From Callorhinchus milii (Eukaryota), in NCBI RefSeq assembly GCF_018977255.1, contig NW_024704742.1, positions 3,846,001-3,910,000 of the forward strand: DNA of 64,000 nt, given 5' to 3'. Shown here piece after piece: positions 23,536 through 53,810 of this stretch; the first letter of the stretch is position 1; each line of letters starts with the position of its first letter. The notes under the pieces are model-generated. The model was not told the origin of the DNA, searched no databases, and saw nothing but the letters and a program-made list of their open reading frames with translations. The translations under genes and the position numbers were made by a program.

Positions 23536-23735
23536 CTTTTTAAGTAAAAATCATCCCATATAGTATTCAAAGTAAGGTCATATGATCCTTATTTCAAATG
23601 CTATTGGTTCAGAATGAGTGTAATGTTTGAATCTCATCACATGAAGGTCATCCTTTAAAGTCTCCCTATGTGCAATAAATGTTGGTTATTTAATGATTTG
23701 GGGATTATTTTTTTCAAAAAAAAAAGCAGGCTCAC

Positions 23736-24148
23736 CAATGTCTCCCAATTGTTAAAGGGCCGGAGCTCCGTGATCTTCTGAGCCTTTCGCAAAGAACATT
23801 GAGGTATCAGTGTAAGTTCATCCAGTGTAGCATCCTGCAGGAAGCTGACAATTTTAGTCCTGCATACACCTTCCACCTCTTCATCTGCACTGCTGTAGTC
23901 CTCGTCAAGTGAACTGTCACCATCAGAAGAAAGGGGTTCTGAATCTTCGGAATCGCTGGTTTCTCTTTGAATGATTCTGCCACCTTTTCTACTTTTGTCG
24001 TGTTTTTTTATTTTACCATTCTGCTCTTCTGCTGCAGGAGTTTGTTTCAATTGCATAAGTGGCATCTCTTTTGGCTGCTTTTTAAAGTTTGAGGTGATCT
24101 CGTTTCCATTTATGTTTTTAGCTTCTGATTCAGAAGGCACTTCATCTT
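23736..24148 (-). CDS. SMARCAD1: SMARCAD1 coding exon 8 (413 nt)
   Basis: ..SSLDEDYSS..FLQDATLDELTLIPQCSLRKAQKITELRPFNNWETL|gtgagc; phase 1 to 0. Confidence 0.96.
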
Positions 24149-26084
24149 CTGAAGATATAAAAAAAATTAAATACAAACAAGTTTGGAACACTGAGAAAGT
24201 AAAACCCAGAATAAGTTTACTTTACATCTCAAAATCATTGAAGTAAGATGTTCATTGTTAATCTTATCTTCTTAAAAGCAAGAAGTAGCGATGCTATTAG
24301 GGTATATTGTGGTCTCAAATCTTAAAAGAAGTGGAGCAACAAAACCCAAATTTAAAAAAAAATAAGACTAGCAATTGATGAATCCTTCCAACATTTTTTG
24401 AGTTTCTAAAATTTGAAAACCAACACATGAAAATCAAGCATATTTTTGCTTTTGGAACCCAAAGCCTTAAACTAGTCAACAACTGCCTGCTATCTCATCT
24501 TTATCAGATTGCTGCGTTGGAAAAAAATGTTACATTAATATTTTTACTTCACCAAGTTCTACCATTTCTTTCAAACTTACCATGTTCTCTGTATCAGACT
24601 TGAGAATGGTTCAAGAAAATTAAGTTCAAGGTTAATCTTATAATTTAGAGTTCAGAAGAGAAGATAAAGATCCATAACAAACAAAAACCCATTCTAATAT
24701 ACAGTGGGATTCAAGCAAAGCTTTTCACATCAAGAATGGTTGTAGTAAATTCTACAGGAGTTATTTTTCCAGAGTACAGTGAGGCTGTTGACTTGGATTC
24801 AAAGTGTTGACTTGGATACCTTTTAAATGAACAACAAGAGCAAGTAAGAATTTCCAAACCAACTAAAGACGAATATTACTTCAGTTTCCCAAATTCAATG
24901 CAGCACTAAGTCTCCTAGTAGACTTAAAAAAAGCAAATAACTTTGCACTCTTTGAAACTAGTTTGTACAAAGGTTACTTAAATATTGCCGCAAACTAAAA
25001 ACTAAAACTGGATCTGAAAGAATCATATTGTTTCAAGCCAATGAGACAAGAGTATTTAAATGTGTCTGGATAGTGAACGTGGACTGTCATAAAACAAAAA
25101 TATGACAGTTCAGTATGTTCACAAGTCGGTTTGGGTCTTTCGGGCAATGCTGTATAATGTTTAAAGAGAATCAAAAAATGATTGTAAAAGTGCTAACTGA
25201 AATGCACAGATTATCAGCTATAATAGCATTGTTCGCTTAAGATCCGAAGAACATTTACAAATGCTTTTTGTAGAAGCTACTTACAGTAGATACTTTTGTA
25301 CATTTACCTTATGCAATTCATTCTGTACTAGAAATAGCTGCATTACCAAAAGCCTGAAAATGTAGTCTATTAAGAGACTTTATGCTGCATTACATTTTGA
25401 AAACTAAATGAATATCTGTTCTTCAGTTGGTTTGGGCACCCTTACAGCAAAGGAACAGTTTTCAGACTCTTTAAAAAGTTATACGTTTGCCTGGCAGCTC
25501 AGTGGATATACCATATGGTAAGCTACATTGACCACAAAAACCCCACCAAGGTTTGAAATCTCAACTGTGTTTACAGTGGTGGAAACAGTGGAAGCAAAAC
25601 TGGCTGAGGATGTCACAGAAGTAACGAGTGAATTCCATTGTACATTGTGTGCAGGTGGTGTTTGGCTGTGATGTCAAAGTAAAAAAGCCTGGCAAGGCTC
25701 CCAAAACCACCCATTTACGTCTATGCAACGCACCTCAGCAAGAATCACCTCCCTCAGGAAAAGAAAGAAATGTTATTCCTCTTCACTGAATCGCAAACTT
25801 GCATCACCCAACCCACTACATTCCTGTTTATGAAGGGCAACACTATTGCGATTTTGCAAACAGGATGTAGGTTATCTTTTTGATGAGGGGAAGAAAAAAA
25901 GCTTAAAATTCATTGCAATATTTTTGTTGCAACGTTAAGATTATATATGTGGGAAGTTGGTGTATTTGCAAGCAATTGCAACAATGAATAAGTTTATTAA
26001 GAACACCGCTGTAGAATGTATCACTTTAAGCGTGATTTCAATTCAAAAGCAAATACAGTGCAAAGAATTTTTGGATTTCCCCAG

Positions 26085-38426: not shown

Positions 38427-39797
38427 CTTGATGCAGAGCGTAAGAAGTAGAACATTTTAAAACAGAATCATGTTCCATACAATATATACAATACAGTACA
38501 TACATTTTCATTTATCCTCCCACAATCAGTTTACTACATCAATACGTTAAACTATTATATATTGATTCCTCCAAATGTCTAATTTAGGAAAAAAATAGAT
38601 TTGAATAATTAATTTCCAAATACTTTTGTACATAAATAAGATCTAGCAGAGACACTTAATTTTAAGTGTTAAACTTCAATGTCTGAAAATGTATTTTAAG
38701 CATTACAGGATGCAGAGTTCATCTTCCCAAAAACTCACTTGCAGAAATGTCACCTTTGTTCAGGATATAGGTTAAATCTAACTTATGGAAATGAAAAGGA
38801 AGAAGTGTAAGAGAGTTTTTAATCCCATTAAACCTCCTTATTGCAAACAAATCAATCTCAGATGTCAAATGAAATATTCAACCCACAATAATTGCCTCCA
38901 ATCACCTCTGCCTGCAGCTCATCAATGACGAGCATTTTGTGCAATACGAAAAAACAAAGGATTAAATGAAGTTTGCCTTTCTTAGAATTTACAGCAGCAA
39001 ATATGCCCCTTACGCACACAGAAATGCAATTGCATCATACATTTAGTCATCCATACAAAATGACCACTCTCCTGTACAACATGCTGACACCATTTGTACA
39101 ATCATAGCCATCATCGTCCTAAATTGGCTGTGTATTAAGCACTGTAGCATAAACAATAATAATCCATTTATTTGATATAGCGCCTTATCACGTCTTCGAG
39201 ACGTCTCAAAGCGCTTCACAGAATATACTCTAAAGTGAATTGATTGTATATTTTTGTGGGCAAAATTCTTTACATTTTGCAAGCTACTGTGTATAAGGTA
39301 CAGTTAACAAGCTTTGCAGTTCTCAATAGATCAGTGGTGGATCTCCCTGTATTTTCCAAATTTTAGATAAAGTGACTTTATAGACAAGTTATAAGCTGGG
39401 CCAATGGGAAAGTGCGGGTGCATTTTTTCCGTGACAACGAGCCTCGCCTGCTAAAATCCCCTCTACACTCAGCCCCTCGGGCACTAACCTTTACACACAG
39501 TGCGCTAGCCCCAAGTCTCTTGCGCTGTTTGCTCAACGCGGCTACCATAGCTGGAGCGGCTGCCGTCACGAATGCGAGGAATTTTGGGATCGCGGAAACA
39601 GCATGTGCGGAAAATTGACTTCGCTGGTGAGTAACTCTCGATAGGAAAAACAGTTGCGTCACACTACTGCGACAAATTTTTGATAAGTGCTGTACTATTC
39701 AAATATTTAGTATTTTAAACATAACTACATTTTCAGGAAATATATACCTATAGTTTTAATCAGAGCTGTTTCCCTTTTTAGGTTGTACAATACAAAA

Positions 39798-41947
39798 ATG
39801 TCCAAATGTTTTTGGAAATCCCGTGAGGAAACAGAGACAGTACGTCTCATTTTCCGTCTGTTCCTCAGATAGAATTGTACTCTATCCAGGTGACCTTTAT
39901 GAAGCAGGAGGGCAGTTGTTTTGCCACATTCACACGAGCGCATGAAATCTTGGAAACATTGTGAATGCAAGGCAGCGACAATAAAGAACAAAAATGAAGG
40001 TCAAATACTTTTGATATACATACATACATAATGAAAATGCATCATTATCTGCTTTCACGTTAATTTTGAAAGAAAATCTTAATTGGTATGATTACAAAAG
40101 TTAATCTCCCTGGTTTTTGATTGAATTTTAAAAGGACATAAAACCACAGCAGACAAAAACAAATAGACAGAACGTTTCTAATGACAGATGCATCATGAAG
40201 ATAAATTTCTAGTTTTTCCTTTCTTAGGTGGATCTCTAAGACAACTTCCTCTGACAACCTGGCAGGTCAAGCAGGATCTATGGAGAAAGTGAGTCAACGT
40301 TTTGGGTCCATGACCCTTCATCAGAACTGGGGCATGTTTCCTCCCAACATGTCCCAGTTCTGACGAAGGGTCGTGGACCCGAAACGTTGACTCACTTTCC
40401 TTTCTCCGTAGTTGCTGCCTGACCTGCTGAGTGTTCCCAGCGACTTCTGTTTTTGTTTCAGATTTTCAGCATCTGCAGTATTTTGCTCTGACAACCTGCT
40501 TCTCTAGAGTCACTGAATCATCTATGGAGAAGAAAGAATTCATATTGAACTTTGTGCAGTGTTTGACTATCGATAAGCTGCTTGAAAAAGCTCCTGCCTT
40601 CCAAGAGTTTTTATGCAAGTACACAAAACAGGGTGGGACTACTCCAACACCATCACAGCTTTGTAATACATACTTGAAGGAGCTTATTCCTGAGCATGAA
40701 GCATTTTTGAAGAAACATGTTGAGGACATGGATGTGTACTTGTTTCTGGATGAGACCACTGATTCCAGTGGGCGCAGTGTTTTGGCAGTGCTAACACAGA
40801 CACTGCAGAAAGCTGTCGGAAGCCTCTTCTTATTGGAGTAGAATTCTTGCAGCGAGTCAACCATGCCACTGTATCACAAGCTCTTCTAAGAGTCTTAAAT
40901 GTAGAAATGGTTAACTTTGATAGTGCTTGCAGTTGCCACAGACAGTCCAAGCTATATGATCAAAGCAGTTAACACAATTCTGTCGGGATTGTTTCCAAAC
41001 GCAATACATATTACACGCATTGCCCGTCTTCTAAACTTGATTTTGGAAATTTAGCCTATTATATTGGAGGACTTAAACGCAGTGGTTGCTGTGGTTAAGA
41101 AAGTCCTTTGCCAAAGTCTATTGTGCCGGCATCAGTACTTGGAATTTATGAAGATGAAGGATAAAATTAAACTACAAATGCCAGTCTTTGCTGTTCAAAC
41201 GCGTTGGTGCTCCTGAGTGAAGGCTGTTGAATATTTGTATGTGTACTTGCCTGTTTTGGCAGAATTACTTTGAGGAATTACATCAGAGGGCTCAGTGAAA
41301 AAAATTAAAACACTCTTGAACAATAACACTGCAGAGTTGCAAGCCCAAGCAACCTTTGTCACAGAGCACTCATCTGAGCTCATAAAACTCACTGAAGAAC
41401 ATCAGGAAACATCTGTGCCTCAGAGCCACAATTTGCATTTATGGGTGCAAAAAATTACATTTGTTTATTGATTTCCAAAGACAGTGGAAAAGTTTGCAGC
41501 CTGTTCTGAGAATGAGAAGCATGTGTCAACCTTTCCCAGAGAATCATACAAGACCGCAGTGAAAAGATGGGCCTGATTTTGAATAAGCATCCGTCAATTG
41601 CTACCTATAAAGCAGTTTGTATTTTTGATCCTCGCCAGCTAGCAACAATGGATGCCAAAAAAGACTTATATAGTAATGTGATTCCTTCCCTTTCAACTAT
41701 TTAAAACTTCGAATGGCATGCTTATAAAGCAGCTGGAGAAAATATCCCAGCTAACCACAAATAGCAGCATGGTGGGGAGCTCGGCCTAAGCCACTTGTGA
41801 AACTTGCTAAAATTGCAAAAAGTTACATTTTTTGAGCACAGCTGACGTTGAAAGATCATTTTCTGTTTATGCAGACCTCCTCAAAGATATCAGACAAAGC
41901 CTACAGAAGAAAATATAAAGATTCTTCTCATGTTAAAATTTAACTAA
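39798..41947 (+). pseudogene. Decayed hAT transposase with CGGBP1-like N-terminus
   Basis: DRIVLYPGDLYEAGGQLFC (39868-39924), FLDETTDSSGR, VATDSPSYMIKA (within 40923-40967), TRW (41199-41207), VERSFS (41847-41864). Frameshifts and stops are present. Confidence 0.88.
40262..40485. mobile_element. Palindromic Penelope-type terminal-repeat fragment inserted in the transposase
   Basis: Inverted arms about 40262-40338 and 40346-40428. 13-bp TSD CTCTGACAACCTG (40249-40261, 40486-40498). CTGACGAAGG..CCGAAACG motif. Family assignment from recall. Confidence 0.75.
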
Positions 41948-42344
41948 TACTGAACTTTTGGCTGACAATTTTTTGTTTGTTTCTGTAAAAATTTGATTTG
42001 AAAATTTTAATTTCTCTGCAAACTGTGTTGAAACTGTACTTTTGCATCTTTTGAAAGGTGGTGTTCTGTTTTTGTTGAAAAAAACATTAATAAATTGTTT
42101 CTTCCAATAATCTATGATGTGTTTCTTCAGGTTTAGTTTTTAAGAGTGAGAAGAGAAAAAATAAAGGGTTAGCAGCAAAACACATCTCTCAACAGCACCA
42201 ATCAACCCCCGCAAAATTCAGCAAGCTCTCCGCAATTTCCCGCAAGACTTCCAAAGCACGCCGTAATTTGGGGGGCGAATATTTAAGAACTTTTCTATTG
42301 GCCCAGGTTATAAGTAAAGAAACCTAACTTAATTTCTTGAAAGA

Positions 42345-42446
42345 ACGGTTCTGACAAAGTCGTGGACCCGAAACGTTGACTCACTTTCCTTTCTCCATAG
42401 ATGCTGCCTGATCTGCTGAGTGTTCCCAGCGATTCCTGTTTTTGCT
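42345..42446 (+). mobile_element. Second, single-arm copy of the Penelope-type fragment
   Basis: Near-identical to 40357-40455 (gtcgtggacccgaaacgttgactcactttcctttctcc..ctgctgagtgttcccagcga). Confidence 0.8.
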
Positions 42447-42854
42447 AGTCATATTGTATCTGGCTGGGTTGAAAAGTTCCTAAAGCATACTAGGCAAAGA
42501 ACCTTCAGGCTTAGTCGAGGGACATTTCACTTGATCCAAGAGAACATGCAAGTCAAGGGGTATTTCATTTGATCAGAACTGTATGACACAGTATCTACTT
42601 ACACTGACACTGAATTACGTTATTGATTCCGCTTATGGAAAAATAATGGCTCAAATGGTGGCAGCAGTTTTTATCTCAGTGTCATTTTTCTTTACTTTCA
42701 ATTGTTGCACAAAAGTTAATAGTATCCCTCCTTGGGTTCAAGTACCAGAAAGAACAAAATGAAGATATGAGCACCACAAAACTCGTCGTGCTGGGGGTGT
42801 ATTCATTGTTGGAGGTGCTGTTTTTCGTATAAGTCATTAAACCAAGGTCCTGTC

Positions 42855-47942: not shown

Positions 47943-48019
47943 GTTAAGTAGGACTCCGAGTGCAGTGCCACTAAGGTGTATGAGGGAGATGAGGTGGTGG
48001 AGGAGGATGGCGTGATCAA

Positions 48020-48620
48020 CTGTGTCAAATGCCAAAGAGGAAGGTCATCGTGCGCGATCTGAAGATGAGGAAGGAAGGGGCAAAGCAAAAGGATAGAGGA
48101 AGAGTGTTCCAGAGTTTTGGGACATAGTGGCTGTAAGCACAGCCACAAATGATGGAATGGAGGGTACGATGTTTGTCAGGAGGTCGCAGAGTTGGGAGGC
48201 TGGGGGGGGGGGGGGGGGGGGGGGGAGTGAGACCCCGGAGAGCTTTGAAGGTGAGGACCAAAATCTTGAATCGTATCCTGTGGGTGAAGGGAAGGAAGCC
48301 AGTGGAGTTGGCCGAGGATGGGGATGATAGGGTCAAGGAGCCTCGTGCGGGCGAGGAGACGGGCTGCAGAGTTCTGGATGATCCGGGCGGGCCCACGGAG
48401 GGGAGAAGCTGGGAGTTTGCATAGTCAAGCCTGGATGTCACGAGCGCGTGCGGGTATGAGGGTTTTGGTGGCCTGCGGCGTGTCAGAGTCTCAGGAGAGA
48501 GACTGGTCGATTGTGCCAGCAGTGAGCAGGGGTGGGTGTGGCGGTGTGGCGGTGGGGGGGTTCACGGCAGCGGGCGGTGAGGTTCATCGGGGTGATGCTG
48601 GGTTTCGAGAGGCGATGGAA
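48020..48620 (-). mobile_element. L2 fragment (shares about 130 bp of near-identity with 45555-45690)
   Basis: TSRLDYANS, RIRFKILVLTFKAL, LWNTLP. Confidence 0.82.
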
Positions 48621-48899
48621 CGATAACAATGATCACACTAACAGTGAAAAAAAAAGGGAATGATAAATCCTTGCATTTTGATACCGCCGCCCCATCGCGT
48701 CTTTGCCCCCTCTCTCCGAGCGCTTCGCGGGATATTACCGGAAGGCGAATCGACCGTTCTACTTTGTGGGACGTGACGTGGAGCGCAGCTGCGGCGCCGC
48801 CACCGCCACCACCGCCGCCACCACCACCACAACAACAACAACATGCACTGATGGAGCGCCTTTCAGGTCAGGAGGGCCTCCAAGACCAGACCACTTCAC

Positions 48900-49428
48900 C
48901 TGCTGCCGCCGTGTGGTCCTTGGGCTGTGATGGCAAAGGGAGTTCGCAGGCGTCCTCCTCCTCCTCCTCTTCCTCTTCTTCTCCTCCTCCTCCTTCTTCT
49001 TCTTCTTCCTCCTCCTCTTCCTCCCCTTCCCCGTGCGCAGGTGGCGAAGGGGGTCCGGAGTCACTCTCCTCGTGGCCGAGTAATGACGACGGTGGCGGAG
49101 GCGGTGATGATGATGATGATGGCGGCGGCGGCGGCGGAAGCGGTGACGATGATGACGACGACGACGACGATGATGAAGAAGAAGAAGAAGAAGAAGAAGA
49201 AGAAGAAGAAGAAGAAGAAGAAGAAGAAGAAGAAGAAGAAGAAGAAGAAGAAGAAGAAGAAGAAGAAGAAGAAGAAGAAGAAGAAGAAGAAGAAGAAGAA
49301 GAAGAAGAAGATGATGATGAAGAAGAAGCGGCAGCGGCAGCTCGGGAGCGGCCCCGCTCGCCGGGCCTGGGCTCGAGCCGCTCTCCTGTCTTGTGGTAAC
49401 GGAAGCGCTCGAGATTGAGGCAGCTCAT
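48900..49428 (-). CDS. SMARCAD1: SMARCAD1 coding exon 1 (529 nt; poly-Ala/Ser/Pro/Glu expanded N-terminus)
   Basis: GCCGCCATG Kozak context. MSCLNLERFRY resembles the human start MNLFNLDRFRF. Donor CAG|GTGAAG is phase 1, matching the next exon; the donor position is less certain than for the other exons. Confidence 0.85.
49175..49309 (+). repeat. (GAA)45 trinucleotide repeat inside coding exon 1
   Basis: 135 nt uninterrupted; read as TCT (Ser) on the coding strand. Confidence 0.95.
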
Positions 49429-50309
49429 GGCGGCGGGCGGGCGGGCGGGCGGTGGGGAGGGAGGGAGGGGGGGGGGGGGGGGGTGGGGGAGGAGCGGCGG
49501 CGGCGGCGGCGCGCGTGCGGTCGCACCTTTTTGAACGCGGGAGTCGGAACGGGCGACCGTTACTGCGGCAACGTCACAAGCGGCCCTCAGGCCCGCGAGG
49601 GGGAGGGGGAGGAGGAGCGGCGCGGCTCTCACTCACTCACTCTCTCTCTCTCTCTATATATATATATACACACACGAGACCTGCCTGAGGTAGTGGGTTA
49701 AACGCGAACTTATTCACGAGCCTCTGTCTTCTCCATCGTTGAGATATATATATATATATATCTATAAATTCCCCCTCCACTCCCCCGTCTCTATTTTCAA
49801 CGAAGGCCCCGAAGTCTCTCTCTCTCTCTCTCTGCGTTTTGGGGGGTGTTGTTGTTGTTGTTGTGGTGGTGGTGGTGGTTTAGGGGTTGTGTGTGTATGT
49901 GTGTGTGTGTGTTTTTCACCCCACGCGCCCCCCTCCCCTTTCTCCTCCTCCTCCTCCTCCACCAGCACCACGCGAAAGCCGTACGGGCCGGGCCGGGTCG
50001 TACGTAAGCACGCACGCACGCACGGACGGGGCGGACGCGCACGCAACGCAACGCACCGCACGCACGCACGCAACCCGGCAGCAACGAGCGCCGCGATTGG
50101 AGGAGACGGCAGGCGGCGGACCAATCGGCGGCTCCCGTGGGAAGGGGAAGGGGGGCGGGGGGAAGGAGGAGGAGGAGGAGGAGAAGAAGAAGGGGAGGTT
50201 AAAGGCCATGTACAGCCACCCCTTCCCCCCCCCCTCCCCCAAACCCCACCCGCACCCTCCCTCCCTCCCTCCTCCAACCATATATATTATACAAACACAT
50301 GGTTATGCC

Positions 50310-53108
50310 CCACCACCACCATCCCCCCACCACCCCCCTCACATCACCACACCCCACACACCACTCACACCCCCACACCACCACACCACCCACACCCCCA
50401 CCACCACACCACCCCCCACACCACCCCCCACACACCACTCACACCCCCACACCACACCACTCACCCCCACACCACACCACACCACACCATACACCCACAC
50501 CACACACACCCCCACACCACACTACCCCCACACACCACTCACACCCCCACACACACCACACCCACACCCCCCACACACACACACCCCCACACCCCACACC
50601 ATACACCCACACCACACACACCCCCACACCACACTACCCCCCACACACCACTCACACCCCCACACACACCACACCCACACCCCCCACACACACACACCCC
50701 CACACCATACACCCACACCACACCACCCCCCACACACACACCCCCCCACACCGTACACCCACACCACACCACACCCCCCACACACACCACACCCCCCACA
50801 CACACCACACCACTCACACCCCCACACCACACCACCCTCCCCACACCATACACCCACACCACACCACCACCCCCACACCACACACCCCCCCACACCCCAC
50901 ACCATACACCCACACCACACCACCCCCACACCCACACCACCACACCACCCCCCATACCACACCACCACCCCACACCACCACACCACCCCCACACCACACC
51001 ACCCCCACACCCACACCACCACACCACCCCCCACACCCACACACCACACACCACACCACCCCCCATACCACACCACCACCCCACACCCACACCACCACAC
51101 CACCCCCCACACCACACCACCCCCCACACCCACACCACCACACCACCCCCCAAACCCACACACCACACACCACACCACCCCCCACACCACACCACCCCCC
51201 ACACCACACCACCCACCACACCACACACCCCCCACACACCACACCACCCTCCCCACACCCACACCACCAGCCCCCACACCATACACCCACACCACACACA
51301 CCCCCCCACACCCCACACCATACACCCACACCACACCACCCCCCACACCACCACACCACCCCCCACACCACACACCACACCACCACCCCCACACCCACAC
51401 CACCACCCCCCACACCATACACCCACACCACCCCCCACACACACCCACACACCACACCCCCACACCACACCACCCTCCCCACACCCACACCACCCTCCCC
51501 ACACCCACACCACCACCCCCCACACACACACCACCCCACACCATACACCCACACCACCCCCACACACACACCATACACCCACACCACACCACCCCCCACA
51601 CCACACCACCCCCACACCACACCACCCCCACACCCACACCACCACCCCCCACACCATACACCCACACCACACCACCCCCCACACCCACACCACCACACAC
51701 CACCCCCCACACCCACACCACACCACCACCCCCCACACCACACACCCACACCACCACACCATACACCCACACCACACCACCCCCCACACCCACACCACCA
51801 CCCCCCACACCATACACCCACACCACTCACACCCCCACACCACACCACCCCCACACCACACACCCCCCACACACCACACCACCACCCCCCACACCATACA
51901 CCCACACCACTCACACCCCCACACCACACCACCACCCCCCACACCACACACCCACACCACCACACCATACACCCACACCACACCACCCCCACACACACAC
52001 CCCCCACATCCCACACCACACCACCCCCACACCCACACCACCACACCACCCCCACACCACACACCCCCCACACACCACACCACACCACCACCCCACACCA
52101 CACCACCCCCCACACCCACACACCACACCACCCCCCACACCCACACCACCCTCCCCACACCCACACCACCACCCCCCACACACACACCACCCCACACCAT
52201 ACACCCACACCACCCCCCACACACACACCATACACCCACACCACACCACCCCCCACACCACACCACCCCCCACACCACACCACCCCCACACCCACACCAC
52301 CACCCCCCACACCATACACCCACACCACACCACCCCCCACACCCACACCACCACACACCACCCCCCACACCCACACCACACCACCACACCACACACCCAC
52401 ACCACCACACCATACACCCACACCACACCACCCCCACACCCACACCACCACCCCCCACACCATACACCCACACCACTCACACCCCCACACCACACCACCC
52501 CCCACACCACACACCCCCACACACCACACCACCACCCCCCACACCATACACCCACACCACTCACACCCCCACACCACACCACCACCCCCCACACCACACA
52601 CCCACACCACCACACCATACACCCACACCACACCACCCCCCACACACACCCCCCCACATCCCACACCACACCACCCCCACACCCACACCACCACACCACC
52701 CCCCACACCACACACCCCCCACACACCACACCACACCACCACCCCCACACCACACCACCCCCCACACCCACACACCACACCACCCCCACACCACACCACC
52801 CCCCACACCACCCCCACCACACACACCCCCACACCCCACACCATACACCCACATCACACCACCCCCCCACACCCACACCACCACACCACCCCCCACACCA
52901 CACACCCCCCACACACCACCACCCCCACACCACACCACCCCCCACACCCACACACCACACACCACACCACCCCCACACCACACCACCCCCCACACCACAC
53001 ACCCCCCACACACCACACCACCCTCCCCACACCCACACCACCAGCCCCCACACCATACACCCACACCACACACACCCCCACACCACAACCCCCCCACACC
53101 ACACCCCC
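50310..53108 (+). repeat. 2.8-kb irregular C/A low-complexity satellite
   Basis: Almost only C and A, with recurring CACACCATACACCCACACCA and CACACCACTCACACCCCCAC variants. Confidence 0.95.
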
Positions 53109-53810
53109 AAAAAAATATGCGGTCAAGTCACTTTACAGTATATTCCACGAAGCGCTCGGAGACGCCTCAAAGGCGCCGCGTCAAAATGCGAGAGTTATTA
53201 TTATTTCAATAAGTTATAAATGTAATTGTTATAATCATCATCATTATTGTAATTATACTAAATCACTTATTATTCTGATGATGATAATTATTTCTGATTA
53301 TAATAAACGCCTCTGGAGTTCCCACGCCTCGGCGGGGAGGGCACGGGGAAACGAATGATCGTCCTCGTCATCGGTTCACTCATTTCGATCCGCCGCCGTG
53401 CGAGGGCTCGCCGCTGTGCGCAATTTGGCCGTCGCGTTACGCACCGCATGCTATATACGGTCTGTTCGCTTTACAGTAACGTTCTGCGCTTTTGAGGCGT
53501 CGATAAGGCGCTATATCAAATGCAAGGGTTATTTATTAACGTGTTTGGTTTGGATACTCTTAAGCATGGTGATGGCTTTCCGCGTGCGTCAGATACCCAG
53601 CCGACCCCCCCAAAAAAGCAGTGTCTTGTCTGGTTCTCGACTGTCCTTCAACCCCCCCCCCCACTCTCCCCAACACACACACACACACACACACACACAT
53701 GCTCTTATTCAAAAAAAGAAGGGAGTTTTTCTCTCCCGGTGTCCTGGCCAATAACCCCCAAAATAAAAAAAAATGATCACTCACTCCATGGCTGTTTGTG
53801 GGATATTGTA

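Follow-up and report, generated by a model that had tools for sequence, protein, structure and literature searches.

What kind of element lies at positions 39388-42314 of a 64,000-nucleotide stretch of the Callorhinchus milii genome (GCF_018977255.1, contig NW_024704742.1, positions 3,846,001 to 3,910,000 of the forward strand; hereafter the window), and does it belong to the transposons from which the host protein CGGBP1 arose? An earlier note on this DNA had described the interval as a hAT transposon with intact ends that encodes a CGGBP1-like transposase. We find that the element is very probably the fossil of an autonomous DNA transposon of the hAT superfamily, with a CGGBP-type DNA-binding head. 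The body of this single hAT copy is 2,911 bp long and measured about 2.7 kb before a later insertion of 221 bp. The two features of the ends that had been reported were confirmed. A perfect 8-bp target-site duplication (TSD), GTTATAAG, stands on both sides, and the 18-bp terminal inverted repeats (TIRs) at 39396-39413 and 42289-42306 pair with each other at 16 of 18 positions. The family to which this copy belongs has a TIR of 20 bp, CTGGGCCAATAGAAAAGTGC, from which the left arm in the window departs by two G-for-A differences.

Between these ends lies a colinear remnant of a transposase gene with two exons and one intron. It comprises a BED-type finger and a second DNA-binding part, together with the D/D/E blocks, a CxxH motif in degraded form and the C-terminal block of hATs. 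The exon 1 remnant opens with an ATG at 39798. The motifs DETTD (40749-40763), ATDS (40935-40946), RIAR (41016-41027) and VERSFS (41847-41864) align to IVDETSD, SDSASYM, CHAH and ADVERSFS, respectively, of a full-length relative of 577 amino acids (aa), and the motif blocks are conserved across the copies of the family. The three DDE motifs had been assigned correctly. The suggestion that RIAR is a decayed CxxH is borne out by the family as well, since 7 of 12 rows of its alignment read C-x2-H at this site.

We ran tblastn with a hAT transposase of a sea urchin (594 aa) that passes both of the Pfam models DUF659 and Dimer_Tnp_hAT, and the matches in the window are colinear. Residues 97-396 of this protein fall on 40530-41432 (E 6e-23), residues 448-499 on 41543-41701 (E 2e-6) and residues 550-573 on 41832-41903 (E 1e-3). 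Among six C-terminal open reading frames (ORFs) of the family, two pass Dimer_Tnp_hAT (PF05699; 21.7 and 23.0 bits vs the cut-off of 21.4), two are just below the cut-off and two give nothing. We also scanned 18 long proteins matched by the N-terminal profile of the family: Dimer_Tnp_hAT passes in 10 of them, and DUF659 is listed in 14 and is above the cut-off in 5. The element and its family therefore show the features of hAT membership, namely an 8-bp TSD, short TIRs (about 10-25 bp), a D/D/E triad with CxxH and a C-terminal dimerisation domain.

Several results weigh against this assignment. None of the window's own ORF pieces (nine pieces and a C-terminal piece of 35 aa) has a significant Pfam match, and DUF659 is below the cut-off in the ORFs of the family (23.6 and 24.2 bits vs 34.7). 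The TIR begins with CTGGG; most hATs start with CAG or TAG (YARNG-like), which makes the second base of CTGGG unusual. A clean duplication is wanting in 3 of the 17 family elements with both ends. Apart from these results, Pfam scans of the N-terminus yielded no zf-BED or Hermes DNA-binding match, and a word-index search that started from the 136-aa ORF to find longer relatives returned 291 candidates, none of them significant.

To evaluate the CGGBP1 likeness, we searched 1.84 billion representative sequences with a profile of the family N-terminus (alignment A1, 28 rows). The profile gave 381 matches at E<=1e-3, of which 74 reach E<=1e-10. The representative of the mammalian CGGBP1 cluster ranks 22nd with E 1.8e-17, and fish proteins named CGGBP1 match too (Aldrovandia, 9.2e-20; Huso, 1.6e-14). 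When A1 was aligned by hhalign to the CGGBP1 of a shrew (P0162, 167 aa), the probability was 99.3% and E was 2.4e-20, with 37% identity over 127 columns (residues 19-154). The homology of the family N-terminus to CGGBP1 includes the finger as well as the second DNA-binding part. In a language-model atlas, a cluster named 'CGGBP1-like' ranks first at 0.96, although this may be the query's own cluster. The closest database proteins to the window element are named Callorhinchus milii. A word-index search with a sturgeon 'CGGBP1' (P0037) gave 3 matches, none from an amniote, and searches of PDB sequences with P0037 and with P0001, a gene model of the family, found no relevant solved structure.

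In the window copy itself, tblastn of the shrew protein is significant only at 39808-39924 (39 aa, 36% identical; E 1.5e-4 when the whole window is searched). To reach the second half of the DNA-binding region, the 577-aa relative was needed (E 2.9e-15). The earlier note had proposed this tblastn search and named a lack of CGGBP1 similarity as the outcome that would speak against it; similarity was found. Its comparison of the two N-termini stands as homology, but the string that it quoted is stitched across two frame changes, the 228-bp intron and the 221-bp insertion. At the level of sequence, the CGGBP1 likeness of the family N-terminus is real.

Does this homology make the family the direct or nearest transposon lineage that was domesticated into amniote CGGBP1? 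The homology, with 37% identity, does extend across nearly all of the protein (residues 19-154 of 167). We constructed a quick maximum-likelihood tree of the DNA-binding region with 111 rows (128 matches covering at least 105 profile positions, minus 17 near-duplicate cluster members), in which support is by SH-aLRT (Shimodaira-Hasegawa-like approximate likelihood ratio test) only. It turned out that the window family forms a clade with support 100, which adjoins proteins of Coregonus, Oncorhynchus and Thunnus and two proteins without a name. In the other half of the tree, amniote CGGBP1 (support 98) is grouped with two proteins, one of a coelacanth (634 aa) and one of a tuatara, again with support 98. 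In addition, 21 representatives outscore CGGBP1 against the family profile. The exclusion by the tree is not strong, because its deep branches are weak (support 80-90). We consider it very unlikely that this family is the progenitor. Placing the element in a tree with CGGBP proteins had also been proposed, and the outcome is divided: the family falls within the CGGBP-type set, but amniote CGGBP1 lies in the other half. The family is a CGGBP-type hAT but, judged from this tree, probably not the lineage nearest CGGBP1.

The proteins of Coregonus (P0007, 426 aa), Oncorhynchus (P0022) and Thunnus (P0014) have the best scores outside the family, with E 2.8e-29, 1.3e-17 and 6.8e-22, respectively. 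For the first of them, the alignment with the window spans the first two catalytic blocks as well as the CxxH site, with 39% identity over 192 aa. They differ in being teleost proteins with at most 39% identity to the window remnant.

We then consider whether the element could still work. No open frame in it exceeds 136 codons. Between the pieces that bear the motifs there are about nine frame changes, a number counted mainly from the ORF pieces, since the frame map from family ORFs is too coarse for an exact count. The exon 1 remnant has two frame changes, and in-frame stops stand at 41052, 41214, 41271 and 41469. The zinc-finger core, which reads C-x2-C...H-x5-H in other copies, is deleted. 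Because of the 136-codon maximum frame, the frame changes, the four stops and the loss of the zinc-finger core, the window copy is dead: it is unable to encode a working enzyme, and the locus is inert, without a function of its own. Of the earlier proposal that this is a vertebrate copy of the CGGBP lineage with its mobile architecture preserved, the intact ends and the CGGBP1-homologous N-terminus hold, but the coding capacity is gone. Frame 0 is continuous across the interval assigned to the intron. Among other copies, 37 of 40 have the donor GT, 31 of 41 have the acceptor AG|G and 26 of 38 have the ATG; the splice signals are thus a feature of the family. In the gene model P0001, the two ORFs of another family copy that correspond to these exons are joined.

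The coding region of the window copy was also hit by a younger and very abundant repeat. The 221-bp insert consists of about 147 bp of this repeat in the forward direction and about 77 bp of the same repeat inverted. The flanking 16-bp duplication matches at 15 of 16 positions. The insert is missing from every other family copy examined at the same site, and the frame is regained once it is removed (...RQLPLTTCFSRVTESSMEKKEF...). A first look at the genome gave 1,703 candidates for the repeat, and the 40 that were scored are mostly 93-97% identical; therefore, the repeat is much younger than its host element. The layout of the nested copy, in which a forward 3' part is joined to an inverted piece of itself between the 16-bp duplications, is reminiscent of target-primed retrotransposition with 5' inversion. 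The repeat occurs a second time in the window, a short way beyond the element (about 42348-42444). An Rfam scan of 39300-42700 gave only sub-threshold microRNA-like matches, all on the nested hairpin.

To describe the family, we searched the genome (991 Mb) for its ends, as the earlier note had also advised. The 19-mer end motif with up to two mismatches occurs 930 + 872 = 1,802 times, vs 2 + 4 = 6 times for the control read backwards. The exact 20-mer end occurs 139 + 144 = 283 times, vs 0 + 0 in the control. With the first 313 bp of the element we obtained 40 scored matches among 126 candidates (69-81% identity), and with a 113-aa coding probe 79 matches among 98 candidates. These counts point to a family of roughly 900 elements or more. 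Most of them are non-autonomous derivatives with internal deletions, and many of these are short (521-1,556 bp).

TSDs of 8 bp with up to two mismatches flank 14 of 17 elements with both ends (6 of 8 in the first loci, the window included, and 8 of 9 further ones). They are perfect in 6 of the 17, the window among these and four in the nine further elements. From 28 flanking 8-mers (14 element pairs) the target consensus nTnATnAn was derived, which GTTATAAG fits. Position 4 is A in 28/28 and position 5 is T in 26/28, with T at position 2 in 21/28, G at position 1 in 19/28 and A at position 7 in 19/28.

The distance of the copies from the majority sequence is about 7-13%. In 19 copies with complete 5' ends, the Kimura two-parameter (K2P) distance from the majority sequence outside CpG sites averages 0.095 (range 0.064-0.153), and that of the window copy is 0.130. 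At typical vertebrate neutral rates this divergence would correspond to tens of millions to more than 100 million years. In the DNA-binding region of 38 copies, the divergence from the majority at codon positions 1, 2 and 3 is 0.074, 0.079 and 0.073. Since it is equal at the three positions, the copies have drifted neutrally since their insertion.

Could the element nevertheless still be mobile, alone or cross-mobilised by a live relative? In favour of this, its ends are nearly complete and the exact 20-mer end is found 283 times in the genome. On the other side, the family copies are 6-15% from the majority, and an open frame longer than 260 aa occurs at none of the 79 genomic matches to the coding probe, where about 570 aa would be needed; as the similarity searches score only the best candidates, a single intact copy could be missed. 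Continued mobility is extremely improbable, and the family is old and extinct. That the locus, or its DNA-binding-only part, is a domesticated CGGBP-like host gene can be dismissed as next to impossible: short gene models (123-161 aa) from other family copies do stand in the source databases and independent births of CGGBPs are reported to be common in fishes (PMC8097297), but the window copy, where a domesticated gene would show an open constrained frame and no transposon ends, keeps both ends, has lost its zinc-finger core, has frame changes in exon 1 and carries a 221-bp repeat inside the DNA-binding coding region, and the divergence of 38 copies is equal at the three codon positions. The history of the fossil hAT copy is thus one of a family that amplified and then went extinct, of neutral decay at this locus and of a later strike by a younger repeat.

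Many of the non-autonomous copies have internal deletions in common. For example, those of L009, L013, L051, L053, L055 and L056 run from element position 1369 to 2633, and a left breakpoint at about 1340 recurs in L005/L049, L016, L018 and L029. The shared deletions begin just before the first catalytic aspartate, so that these copies keep no more than the 5' end and the region that codes for the CGGBP-like DNA-binding part; the loci of deletion copies were chosen with probes from this region, which biases their share. Database gene models of 145-161 aa (P0001, P0003 and P0004) come from the family, and P0001 was traced to L005/L049. It is possible, though improbable, that such DNA-binding-only derivatives are expressed as CGGBP-like proteins that act as transposition repressors or nascent host factors. 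If so, the repeated birth of CGGBPs would extend to cartilaginous fishes.

We also assessed the subterminal regions for sites that the head might recognize. All five plus-strand GCGG sites of the element are within its first 216 bp, a count reached by 9 of 2000 shuffles, and three of four minus-strand sites are within its last 100 bp (25 of 2000 shuffles). In about 569 bp of 5' region, the majority sequence of the family contains 37 CpG. Against the binding-site idea, CCGC is found there too, 3 times within the first 150 bp. Because CCGC is present as well, the reading of GCGG as putative subterminal sites bound by the transposase head is only suggestive.

On top of the observed features (ends, duplication, domain order and homology), a scheme of movement can be proposed whose steps follow known hAT behaviour. 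The ancestral transposase would have been encoded by a two-exon gene, with a CGGBP-type head made of a BED-like C2H2 finger and a Hermes-like second part. Behind the head would come an RNase-H-like D/D/E catalytic domain with CxxH and then the hAT C-terminal domain. The head may have bound short subterminal sites, plausibly the inward-facing GCGG motifs, and the catalytic domain would have cut at the 20-bp TIRs. Reinsertion at nTnATnAn targets would then yield the 8-bp duplications. The anatomy of the window copy is given in the table.

Table. Anatomy of the hAT copy, in window coordinates.
Feature	Position	Strand	Remarks
Left TSD copy GTTATAAG	39388..39395		Identical to 42307-42314; fits nTnATnAn
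Left TIR	39396..39415	+	18 bp as reported, 20 bp by family form
5' subterminal/untranslated region, CpG-rich	39416..39797	+	Inward-facing GCGG at 39414, 39538, 39556, 39592, 39607
Exon 1 remnant: ATG, N-terminal arm, BED-type zinc-finger region	39798..39999	+	ORF pieces; other copies; tblastn with mammalian CGGBP1
Putative intron, GT..AG, phase 1	40000..40227	+	228 bp; frame 0 runs through; splice signals kept in other copies
Exon 2 remnant: second DNA-binding half, D/D/E domain and CxxH site, hAT C-terminal block	40228..41947 (end approximate)	+	tblastn, motifs
Nested insertion, younger abundant repeat	40262..40482		Flanking 16-bp duplication 40246-40261 / 40483-40498
3' untranslated/subterminal region	41948..42286	+	Minus-strand GCGG at 42209-42212, 42230-42233, 42240-42243
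Right TIR	42287..42306	-	Pairs with left TIR
Right TSD copy GTTATAAG	42307..42314		Identical to left copy

Elsewhere in the window, a 2.8-kb C/A-rich degenerate tandem array occupies 50308-53109, with units such as CCACCACA that match at 62-74%. Its strand skew is extreme (GC skew -0.85, AT skew +0.81). A (GAA)51 array at 49175-49328 lies in a G+C-rich, CpG-island-like stretch (48001-52000; 0.585-0.656 G+C). On the minus strand, 23655-24221 holds an open frame of 188 codons, acidic and serine-rich, which resembles an exon of a host gene.

The origin of CGGBP proteins from hAT transposases, which the earlier note took as established, is in print (PMC9004415, PMC8097297). CGGBP-type hATs with intact ends, the hAT-19/hAT19 group, have also been published (Yellan 2021; Frith 2022; PMC8097297, PMC9004415). 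The CGGBP1 model is reported to match 29 of 824 RepeatMasker hATs, mainly hAT-19 (13 of 16 entries), and CGGBPs are described as the product of many independent domestications (PMC8097297). Fossils of hAT19 are said to support a hAT19 origin of CGGBP1 (PMC9004415). Named examples of this type are hAT-19_Crp, hAT-13_LCh, hAT-39_LCh and hAT-31_CPB (PMC8097297, PMC9004415). The main text of PMC8097297 names bony fishes, lamprey, insects and fungi; no cartilaginous fish appears in that main text or in one of its supplementary files, and one supplementary file each of PMC8097297 and PMC9004415 contains no chimaera or hAT19 table.

Thus, the CGGBP-type hAT is a kind already known, and the window family is a further member of it. 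What it adds is a CGGBP-type hAT family, with its ends, target preference and gene structure, placed in a holocephalan genome, and with it a data point on the age and spread of the CGGBP source lineage. It also provides a definition by which roughly 900 copies can be annotated: 20-bp ends, the nTnATnAn target and one intron. What is known of the origin of CGGBP1 is unchanged by this family.

Compared with the classical hATs Hermes, Ac and hobo, the window family has the same 8-bp duplication, short TIRs, D/D/E triad with CxxH and C-terminal hAT domain, and its target has the same T at position 2 and A at position 7. The Ac-type target pattern is nTnnnnAn. The window family differs in adding a preference for a central AT, in its CTGGG ends and in an N-terminus that Pfam matches to neither zf-BED nor Hermes. 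With amniote CGGBP1 it shares the BED-like finger and the second DNA-binding part; CGGBP1, in contrast, is a host gene that consists of the DNA-binding head alone, without the catalytic domain, and it belongs to another branch of the tree. The order of parts in hAT19-type transposons, a CGGBP1-type head followed by the D/D/E domain and the hAT C-terminal domain, is the same in the window family. CGGBP proteins are reported usually to prefer CGG or CGC motifs found in the subterminal regions of their elements (PMC8097297), and the CGG-containing subterminal motifs of the window family fit this preference. It is likely that the family belongs to hAT19.

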